Shown here piece by piece: positions 45,663 to 46,711 of a stretch of DNA of 52,288 nucleotides; the stretch's first letter is position 1; each line of letters opens with the position of its first letter. Under the pieces are notes generated by a model, which worked only from the letters and a program-made list of their open reading frames with translations, was not told the origin of the DNA and searched no databases. This DNA comes from Escherichia phage vB_EcoM_Bp10, in the sequence record MN122072; one strand, given 5' to 3'. The translations under genes were made by a program, and so were the position numbers.

Positions 45663-46711
45663 GTTGAACATGGCCTAGCTAGTTGGTGGTGTAAAAGACT
45701 GACCAAGGTGACGACAGCCAAACAAATGCTCGCCATCGCATGAACAACATTTGGCAGTCCGGTACGGGACTTTAAATACACGTATATCATAGTCGAGGGA
45801 GTGCGCGACTTTAAATAACGAGACTCTATCCACTTGTGGTATGGCAGGTGTAATTCCTGCAAATTGCTCTGGGCATAACAATTGAAATTGCTACCTCCTA
45901 GGATTGGAACGTCCCGCTACACATCGTTAGTGTGAGAAGGTTAGTCCACCGAGACAAAGGCTTGCGGCTTGACTCCGGCCAAAGAAGAAAACGGCGTGCT
46001 TGAGAACGAAGCTCCGATGACTCCGTAAAGTCAACGTAATGAACACGAGACGTTCAGGTGGTCACTTCCTAAAACAGTGTCCGAGAACATCCTCGCCAAA
46101 GTGCTTGAGAACGTTAGCTCTGTCTTGCCAGCATTAATGGCACGTTGGCCGCGTAAAGGCCACAGCGTCTGACCAACGTATAGGTCAACCAAATTCAATG
46201 GATTCGTAGAGTTAATGAAACCTGCACAACGGGCTAGGGATGAAGCATCCGAGGCCGACCGTGTAATTGTGAACGTGGAGTTCACCGAATCCGCCAAATC
46301 AATGGGCTAGTGCAAATGTCAGTCACTAGAAGATGTGTTGCAAAACGTCTTCCATGATGTGCAAAGTGTCAGTCACGTGCCCGCCAATTTACCTCCAACA
46401 GTTATGCCTCTGTTCAAAAGGCTCAAGAGAGCGTCTGGCATACCGTAGCGATACGGCTTAGTTGCGCTGATTGTGTTGTGCAGAAAGAAAGTTCAGGCTT
46501 TCGTTTGGGTTACTCCTCATCCCGAAGTTAGCTGGATTCAAAATCCAGACTATGTTCCTATACACATGAAATATGCAAGTCGAGGGTTCTTAATGTTCAA
46601 ACATGATGCGAGCATTAAGCGGGTTTATACTTTTCCCCGATGGTCCCCATAAACAAGGCTGATTCACTTGGGCGGTTCGAATCAAACCTATTCAATCCTT
46701 TGGAGAACCAG

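Follow-up and report, generated by a model that had tools for sequence, protein, structure and literature searches.

GOLLD and ROOL are large ornate RNAs of phages and prophages, encoded near tRNA islands; they form multimeric cages, and their function is unknown (PMC12286853, PMC5737381). GOLLD has a 3' region that is conserved and a 5' region that is less so, sometimes with tRNAs in the linker (PMC12286853, PMC5737381). Here we consider an interval free of open reading frames (ORFs) in the genome of Escherichia phage vB_EcoM_Bp10 (record MN122072; the whole analysed stretch of 52,288 nt is hereinafter the window). The interval, denoted R2, occupies positions 45663-46711 of the + strand, and its comparison with the counterparts in related phages indicates that it is very probably a conserved, lineage-specific element working as a folded + strand RNA.

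Among the known RNAs, GOLLD and ROOL come closest to R2 in organisation and context. Like GOLLD, R2 is phage-encoded, lies near tRNA genes and combines a variable 5' part with a conserved 3' domain, and in the genus Loessnervirus a tRNA-like element stands just before this domain. This is a likeness of organisation and does not prove homology. The helices and conserved motifs of R2 are apparently unrelated to those of GOLLD, the hosts belong to Enterobacterales, and the strictly virulent phage has a T7-like RNA polymerase. With ROOL (approximately 580 nt), R2 shares pseudoknots and multistem junctions, the location in phages near tRNA genes, and the lack of a known protein partner or function (PMC5737381, PMC12286853). 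R2 also resembles transfer-messenger RNA (tmRNA) in having an H-type pseudoknot and, in the neighbouring ORF-poor region R1, a tag frame, whereas R2 itself contains neither a tag frame nor a tRNA-like domain. The tRNA region of phage T4 encodes species 1 and 2 (rnaD/rnaC), stable RNAs of approximately 140 nt and of unknown function, which lie beside tRNA genes and are cut from a polycistronic transcript. Their likeness to R2 is by description only, as RNAs of a virulent coliphage situated beside tRNA genes, and they differ from R2 in size.

The window is a 52-kb genome of the phiEcoM-GJ1 type (Chaseviridae, Carltongylesvirus) with all genes on the + strand and a gene for the T7-like RNA polymerase. 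The interval and its best conserved part are delimited as follows.

45663-46711, + strand: R2, the ORF-free interval, from the stop codon of the o-spanin gene to the base before ATG 46712; syntenic in all examined chasevirus genera.
46378-46690, + strand: the conserved 3' domain, approximately 300 nt, in a single copy per chasevirus genome.

In all five sampled genera of Cleopatravirinae, the spanin genes are separated from the thyX-primase-polymerase block by a gap of 0.9-1.5 kb that carries no annotation. The gap is present in Carltongylesvirus and close relatives (GJ1, DE15, 2KOFFS, SKA49, ST32, Mangalitsa, the PYps phages), in 4HA13 (Sabourvirus), Faunus (Faunusvirus), Aioli, Berlingot and Y2 (Loessnervirus) and PP101 (Suwonvirus), and also in contigs of four unclassified metagenomic types. 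Altogether 66 phage records, nearly all of them Chaseviridae, match 1,151 bases around R2; these include phiEcoM-GJ1, SKA49, Mangalitsa, ST32, the Yersinia PYps phages and the Erwinia phages of Loessnervirus and Faunusvirus, and the identity within Carltongylesvirus is 86-97%. The profile of the 3' domain has exactly one match in each chasevirus locus sampled (nhmmer, E from 1e-90 to 4e-15). Eight loci of other phages, whose thyX genes are more distant, give none. BLAST against 5,426 complete E. coli genomes yielded no match. A 21-base two-anchor pattern had 12 matches in GTDB (one genome per species), none with the pseudoknot, with approximately eight expected by chance by our own estimate; the scan of metagenomes with the same pattern yielded six true matches, all chasevirus-like, one of them a new divergent type, L122. 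The record PP952070.1, named 'Staphylococcus phage Pel53' (host listed as Staphylococcus hyicus), is 86.5% identical to the coliphage region over 79% of the query; this host assignment looks doubtful.

In the 3' domain, a plain cross-genus MAFFT alignment contains the invariant motifs UCUGGCAUA, UGAAAUAUGCAAG and the CUCCUCA loop, while the segments between them change complementarily. The structural model of the domain comprises the following elements.

46398-46422, + strand: H-type pseudoknot with stem S1, ACAG (46398-46401) with CTGT (46410-46413), and stem S2, GCCT (46406-46409) with AGGC (46419-46422).
46435-46442, + strand: 5' strand of the long-range helix, CUGGCAUA, which pairs with UAUGCAAG at 46572-46579 and closes the multi-helix core.
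46443-46456, + strand: hairpin Ha, CCGTA-GCGA-TACGG, with a GNRA tetraloop; stem variants GTGTA/TACAC, CTGGA/TCCAG, CTCAA/TTGAG and TCGGT/ACCGA.
46472-46476 with 46562-46566, + strand: helix K, TGTGT/ACACA, which encloses hairpins G, Hs and R.
46487-46502, + strand: hairpin G, GAAAG-TTCAGG-CTTTC, covarying as GAGAC/GTCTC, GGAAC/GTTCC and GGAAT/ATTCC.
46505-46525, + strand: hairpin Hs, TTGGG-UUACUCCUCAU-CCCGA, whose loop carries the conserved CUCCUCA, resembling an anti-Shine-Dalgarno sequence.
46532-46548, + strand: hairpin R, CTGGA-TTCAAAA-TCCAG, covarying as CTGTA/TGCAG, CTGGG/TTCAG, GAGTA/TACTC and TGGCT/AGCCA.
46572-46579, + strand: 3' strand of the long-range helix, UAUGCAAG, within the invariant motif UGAAAUAUGCAAG.
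46589-46639, + strand: adjacent hairpins Hv (of variable length, with a UUCG loop in L020) and Hc (CGGG...CCCG, covarying with CAGG...CCUG).
46661-46683, + strand: terminal hairpin Hf, GATTC-ACUUGGGCGGUUC-GAATC, with a covarying stem.

To count pairs, 17 sequences were parsed into structural elements and padded, and 16 of them were counted, row L015 being left out. For the core of the 3' domain (33 pairs), 99.2% of the cells are paired, against 26-41% in controls with the 3' partners slid along by 1-3 columns; changes on both sides are observed in 21 of the 33 pairs (95 cells, compared with 0-11 in the slid alignments), and none of 500 shuffles reaches the observed values. The same tendency holds for the middle helices K, G and R (97.9% of cells paired vs 26-59% slid; double changes in 10 of 15 pairs) and for three hairpins of the 5' part (91.4% vs 32-45%; 12 of 15 pairs). 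Hairpin Hf was excluded from the counts, as MAFFT had re-gapped the last 50 columns of the padded alignment. Independently, RNAalifold applied to the unedited MAFFT alignment recovers the long-range helix, S2, Hs and Hf. At one position of Hs the commonest pair is U-G (9 of 16 sequences). Read from the opposite strand, G-U pairs would turn into A-C mismatches; this and the presence of GNRA and UUCG tetraloops favour RNA rather than DNA, and the + strand. Structured RNA, which had been one of the possibilities named in the preliminary description of this region, is strongly supported by the covariation across genera.

The H-type pseudoknot has all eight pairs in 16 of the 17 sequences, with compensatory changes in six of the eight, so that both stems are supported by covariation; its third loop is A-rich (UCAAA). 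The first stem occurs as ACAG/CTGT, GTGG/CCAC, CTGG/CCAG, ATAG/CTAT, ATGG/CCAT and AAAG/CTTT, and the second one as GCCT/AGGC, GTCT/AGGC, TCTT/AAGA, GCAT/ATGC, ACGT/ACGT, GCCA/TGGC and GCGT/ACGC. Hairpin R, paired in 100% of cells and with double changes in four of its five pairs, is the inverted repeat near 46531-46550 that had been noted earlier from the single sequence; it is real and covaries in relatives. Helices K, G and R exist in the type represented by Carltongylesvirus, Faunus, 4HA13 and PP101. Stems capped by UUCG are found in L020 (CUAUC-UUCG-GAUAG) and PP101 (CAAC-UUCG-GUUG). Tentatively, the leader of the domain (46378-46383, UGCCCG) may pair with the Hf loop (UGGGCG); this pairing has one compensatory change, CCGACCA with UGGUCGG in Faunus. 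We also considered CTGGA-UUCAAAA-UCCAG and GGTTCGAATC (46674) as tRNA remnants or a T arm, and rejected this, as both are helices of the conserved 3' domain (GGTTCGAATC being a part of Hf).

R2 is non-coding. The longest + strand ORF wholly within it (46473-46652) has 59 aa, in agreement with the earlier statement that there is none of 60 aa or more; the minus-strand ORFs have 102, 68, 88 and 76 aa and had been regarded as spurious, which is borne out, as they are frameshifted or stopped in close relatives. Indeed, every small ORF on both strands is broken by indels of 1, 2, 4 or 5 nt or by in-frame stops in relatives that are 84-99% identical. Among the ORFs of at least 40 aa in the equivalent regions of eleven relatives, none is common to the genera, and the matches to the window are limited to patches of 9-59 aa. 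The substitutions in R2 track base-pairing and not codon position: in the Hs stem the compensatory change from GGG/CCC to GAG/CUC (G-to-A plus C-to-U) makes the very in-frame stop that ends the 59-aa ORF in four relatives.

If R2 were a decayed coding sequence or a group of very small genes, one would point to the ORFs of 40-70 aa annotated in its equivalent in some records, and to an unannotated ORF of 97 aa in Aioli that overlaps the conserved Block B of the 5' part. However, the annotated and potential ORFs are not conserved, the Aioli ORF matches the window over 20 aa only, that is, over Block B, and the best-conserved blocks, Block B among them, carry indels of 1-2 nt between phages. Together with the broken ORFs on both strands and the substitutions that follow pairing, this makes a coding origin very improbable. 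In particular, the Aioli ORF was tried as the intact ancestor of a frameshifted gene (with a 1-nt difference near 46040) and rejected, since only these 20 aa are aligned and the block has 2-nt indels. The preliminary description had named decay of a gene as one possibility and had reasoned that an intact gene in relatives, aligned to R2 with frameshifts, would make R2 a pseudogene; no such gene is observed, and this possibility is rejected.

The 5' half of R2 (45663-46377, approximately 700 nt) is a mosaic, in which hairpin modules are present or absent between close relatives and reordered between genera.

45668-45722, + strand: conserved 5' block, with a possible hairpin TTGGT...ACCAA.
45756-45778, + strand: hairpin AGTCC-GGTACG-GGACT, overlapping the first 17-mer, GTACGGGACTTTAAATA; the module is absent in DE15, ST32 and Mangalitsa.
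45798-45827, + strand: Block A hairpin, with a 5-bp stem GGAGT/ACTCT and a near-invariant 20-nt loop GYGCGACYWUAAAYAACGWG.
45829-45860, + strand: two small covarying hairpins, TCCAC-TT-GTGGT and GCAGG-TGTAATT-CCTGC.
45898-46039, + strand: variable module of 142 nt, which SKA49, 2KOFFS and 4HA13 carry and GJ1, DE15, ST32 and Mangalitsa lack.
46048-46113, + strand: Block B, 94-96% identical in phages of the Loessnervirus type and 78% in Faunus.
46310-46376, + strand: two copies of GTGCAAA(G)TGTCAGTCAC, at 46310 and 46359, flanking a hairpin GAAGATG...CGTCTTC.

The conservation of Blocks A and B far exceeds that of the genes around them. Block A (45789-45826) and its counterpart in Erwinia phage Aioli share 97% identity, and the stem of Block A covaries (GGAGT/ACTCT, TGAAT/ATTCA, GGGAT/AACCC); Block B is considered non-coding because its variants differ by indels of 1-2 nt. 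The order of the modules has been shuffled: in Aioli, AATGTCAGTCAC precedes Block A, and in the window it follows Block B. In DE15 and 2KOFFS, a free-standing HNH endonuclease gene is situated between the o-spanin stop codon and the first conserved block of R2 (between 45648 and 45668 of the window; L003 3051-3497, L002 787-1233); as it is inserted just upstream of the block at 45668-45722, this block is a part of the RNA region rather than of the spanin gene. Aioli and 4HA13 have other HNH genes, at other points of the non-coding island.

The direct repeat noted previously at about 45768 and 45807 was confirmed as two 17-mers, GACTTTAAATA, at 45762-45778 and 45801-45817. They lie in a hairpin neighbouring Block A and in the Block A loop itself, and no further copy was found in the window at up to one mismatch. 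Another local repeat, GTGCTTGAGAACG, occurs at 45996 and 46101, and the variable module at 45898-46039 repeats the tail of Block B in part (GTGCTTGAGAACG.AGCTC) and also holds the 13-mer TTAGTGTGAGAAG. The latter is the motif that had been described as shared with position 44632; it is present there as an exact match at 44634, and this sharing is near chance (3 matches at up to two mismatches vs 1.4 expected). The other repeats of R2 are local and region-specific.

Several observations weigh against R2 as a folded functional RNA and have to be set beside the covariation. The z-scores of the minimum free energy of single sequences are non-significant (+0.20 for the 3' domain on the + strand, -0.06 on the - strand, and -0.72 for the 5' part); with no advantage in folding energy over shuffled sequence on either strand, the evidence for the structure is comparative and not thermodynamic. 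Thus, the earlier remark that the region is rich in hairpins holds in so far as covarying hairpins are found by comparison and does not hold for the folding energy of the single sequence. Three alignments were fitted by hand to the structure at loops of variable length, and therefore the percentages of paired cells are inflated; the columns of the pseudoknot and Hc were fixed by sequence anchors, and hairpins Hf and Hs were parsed by hand in several sequences. As the sequences are related, many of the compensatory cells are inherited and do not represent independent events. The long-range helix CUGGCAUA/UAUGCAAG, paired in 16 of 16 sequences, never varies and hence has no support from covariation. 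With the covariance model of GOLLD, the window gives nothing at E up to 10 and four relatives give nothing at E up to 1; that of ROOL has no match either, and compared with ROOL the conserved core of R2 is smaller (approximately 300 nt) and its taxonomic range is different. Neither a promoter-like nor a terminator-like site brackets R2, and in the literature we found no chasevirus transcriptome and no mention of R2. Since the GOLLD and ROOL models do not match and the likeness is organisational, R2 would be a new family among the large ornate phage RNAs, consisting either of a single RNA or of several RNA modules in tandem.

Membership in known families was assessed with the 4227 covariance models of Rfam 15, using the gathering thresholds. 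At these thresholds, the only match in the window is a tRNA at 45020-45111. At E up to 10, R2 has chance matches only (sR60, 15 bits; SOX2OT, 12.5 bits), and its equivalents in relatives have only weak matches to tRNA and tmRNA. Thus, the search with the Rfam models, those of introns among them, which had been suggested as a check of the preliminary description, gave neither a family nor an intron in R2. A group I or II intron is further contradicted by the lack of an interrupted host gene, and neither ARAGORN nor RF00005 finds a tRNA cloverleaf in R2.

As for transcription, the motif (TCTGA)AACATTAGTTGGAT occurs on the + strand only, in eight copies (19349, 30908, 33425, 37543, 41460, 41601, 43569 and 51679), with 16 matches at up to three mismatches vs 6.8 expected, and it corresponds to what the GJ1 record annotates as 'putative phage promoters'; according to the ICTV profile, chasevirus promoters have not yet been identified. 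No copy falls within 43583-47459, the nearest upstream one being at 43569. Scans for sigma-70 promoters and intrinsic terminators yielded fewer sites than in shuffled sequence. As R2 is not bracketed by such sites, we only infer an independent stable transcript.

The role of R2 depends on whether it acts in trans or on its own neighbourhood. We tentatively favour, with somewhat less than even confidence and by analogy with the described RNAs, a stable RNA acting in trans. As all genes are on the + strand, R2 would be co-transcribed with its neighbours, the nearest upstream promoter-like motif being that at 43569. The transcript would then be processed into a stable RNA, the tRNA-like element of some genera serving as a handle for tRNA-processing enzymes, and this RNA would act in trans as an RNA or a ribonucleoprotein scaffold, similarly to GOLLD and ROOL. 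The invariant single-stranded elements, namely the 20-nt loop of Block A, the CUCCUCA loop and UGAAAUAUGCAAG, might be the recognition surfaces, and the partners would probably belong to the translation apparatus, since the island is shared with a tRNA and an element with a tmRNA-like tag. The proteins encoded nearby include no RNA-binding or SmpB-like partner, as judged by Pfam and PHROGs searches.

R2 could instead be a cis-acting leader, that is, a long 5' untranslated region or a processing or timing element of the thyX-primase/helicase-polymerase mRNA, controlling translation, stability or read-through of the downstream genes. In that case one would expect it always upstream of this block on the same strand, with no terminator in between, as is observed, and the CUCCUCA loop could pair with Shine-Dalgarno sequences. 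However, the gene directly downstream is not conserved: in the window it encodes 89 aa, in L040, L020, Berlingot and Faunus its place is taken by ORFs of 101-196 aa that are unrelated, and in L122 by thyX itself. The distance from the R2 element to this gene varies from 26 to more than 100 nt, approximately 1 kb with a pseudoknotted core of 300 nt far exceeds known bacterial leaders, and there is no match to a riboswitch or leader family. We consider a leader unlikely. If R2 were a replication origin or a primer RNA (cf. the T7 primary origin and ColE1 RNA II), or hairpins of single-stranded DNA recruiting primase, its place directly upstream of the T7-like replisome module and its short direct repeats would be explained; the tandem 17-mers, with the core CGACT...TAAATA...GAGA, loosely resemble the T7 promoter (by our own comparison with the T7 consensus). 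Against this, the 17-mer occurs only in R2 and is unrelated to the promoter-like AACATTAGTTGGAT, of which R2 has no copy, and its second copy forms the loop of an RNA hairpin that covaries; for the same reasons the 17-mers were rejected as phage promoters or iterons. The region is G+C-rich rather than A+T-rich (G+C content 0.45-0.50, above 0.40-0.44 of the flanks), so that the tandem promoters and A+T-rich stretch of a T7-type origin are lacking, and the structure is kept at the RNA level, as the G-U pairs, the GNRA and UUCG loops and the pseudoknot indicate a folded RNA and not DNA hairpins. An origin thus seems improbable; a role as primer RNA is possible. The size of R2, its tertiary-structure motifs, the variable downstream gene and the neighbourhood of RNA genes make a trans-acting RNA likelier than a leader or an origin, although none of these is decisive.

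The preliminary description had also allowed for a genome-end region, and three public records (BSBP01, Ecp_YSF, 2KOFFS) indeed start or stop within or near the homologous region, as would be expected of a physical end or packaging site. However, chaseviruses have direct terminal repeats of approximately 3 kb. The repeat predicted by PhageTerm in Mangalitsa occupies positions 1-3234 of the record and contains the RNA polymerase gene, while the R2 homologue is at 15126-15975, approximately 12 kb away; the location of the repeat in 4HA13 agrees with this, and most public records run uninterrupted across the R2 equivalent. As the R2 equivalent and the Mangalitsa terminus do not coincide, a genome end is rejected as extremely improbable. 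Another region of approximately 1.1 kb without annotated genes, at 2825-3948 of the Mangalitsa record (by offset, approximately 33500-34650 of the window), straddles the right boundary of the repeat (3234).

The genes flanking R2 are complete and mutually unrelated. Downstream, the gene starting at ATG 46712 (89 aa, function unassigned) precedes thyX, and the T7-like replisome module (thyX, primase/helicase, DNA polymerase) follows; an ORF of 113 aa at 46640-46981 is the same downstream gene, the conserved part of which begins at ATG 46712. On the other side of the spanin cassette lies the second ORF-poor kilobase, R1 (44003-45143). A block homologous to window 44968-45007 is downstream of the spanins in Loessnervirus and upstream of them in the window; because of this shift, R1 and R2 act as a single non-coding island, in which the insertion point of the small spanin cassette differs. 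R1 includes the following features.

44074-44395: unannotated tag-encoding element, a structured RNA with a tmRNA-like tag (tag frame 44257-44289).
45019-45115: odd tRNA of 97 nt (45 bits in Rfam), with a 23-nt insertion in the D-loop that looks like a partial duplication of the D-arm (GCTCAG twice).

The tag frame has no start codon and is preceded by AAAAUAAAU; it reads GCA AAU GAU UCU GAA AUG CGA GUU GCG GCU UAA, that is, ANDSEMRVAA and a stop, and the stop codon sits in the loop of a covarying hairpin. The tag is kept across genera by means of synonymous changes (ANDSEMRVAA, ANDNEMRAVA, ANDSEMRMVA, ANDNEMRAAA, ANDSEIRVAA). The Rfam tmRNA models match R1 only, with 15-23 bits, under the gathering thresholds of 47-50 bits, and a search for a tRNA-like domain partnering the tag frame found none. 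In 4HA13 and L040, an ORF begins approximately 105 nt past the tag stop codon. A 97-nt insertion at 44463-44559 is present in none of 12 annotated relatives compared. On either side of it stands a copy of an imperfect direct repeat, CAGAGTACAAACTTAATTA (44444, 44560), about 19-30 nt long, which points to a duplication of local sequence or to the trace left by a small mobile element.

The identity of the 97-nt tRNA differs between sources: ARAGORN gives Leu(CAG), GenBank records give Arg with the remark 'may contain an intron', and by eye the anticodon loop is UCG (Arg). For Mangalitsa and the PYps phages there is no ARAGORN call of this tRNA. The pseudoknot of Loessnervirus has, 10-20 nt upstream, a tRNA-like element made up of a T arm, an acceptor 3' strand and either CCA or CAC. 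The tRNA-like elements of the Erwinia phage islands (2826-2870 and 3183-3255 in L004, i.e. Aioli; 3629-3697 in L006, i.e. Berlingot; 1022-1105 in L005) have covarying T-arm stems, acceptor strands and sometimes an encoded CCA, and are missed by ARAGORN. Two of them reach the Rfam tRNA threshold, with 30.7 bits (L006 3629-3697) and 31.1 bits.

One may go further and consider the whole island (44003-46711, 2.7 kb) as the kit of a phage 'RNA organelle' that targets the ribosome of the host, in which R2, the tag RNA of R1 and the tRNA would together reprogramme ribosome rescue or translation in the infected cell, or blunt host defences that cleave tRNA or mRNA. R2 would then form a higher-order particle, or would bind ribosomes or Shine-Dalgarno sequences via the CUCCUCA loop. 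This is speculative and, in our estimate, rather unlikely.

To our knowledge, bacteria and phages rarely have large non-coding RNAs with an intricate fold, and few classes are described (GOLLD, ROOL, OLE, raiA). These RNAs are structurally remarkable. For public annotation, the analysis of R2 provides a correction, as some records are blank across the region and others are filled with spurious small ORFs. The carriers of R2 are cultivable, strictly lytic 52-kb phages of E. coli, Yersinia, Erwinia and Pectobacterium with standard hosts, which would make it an experimentally tractable class of RNA. Since approximately 2% of the genome is kept for R2 across at least five genera, it probably makes a real contribution to the fitness of these phages.

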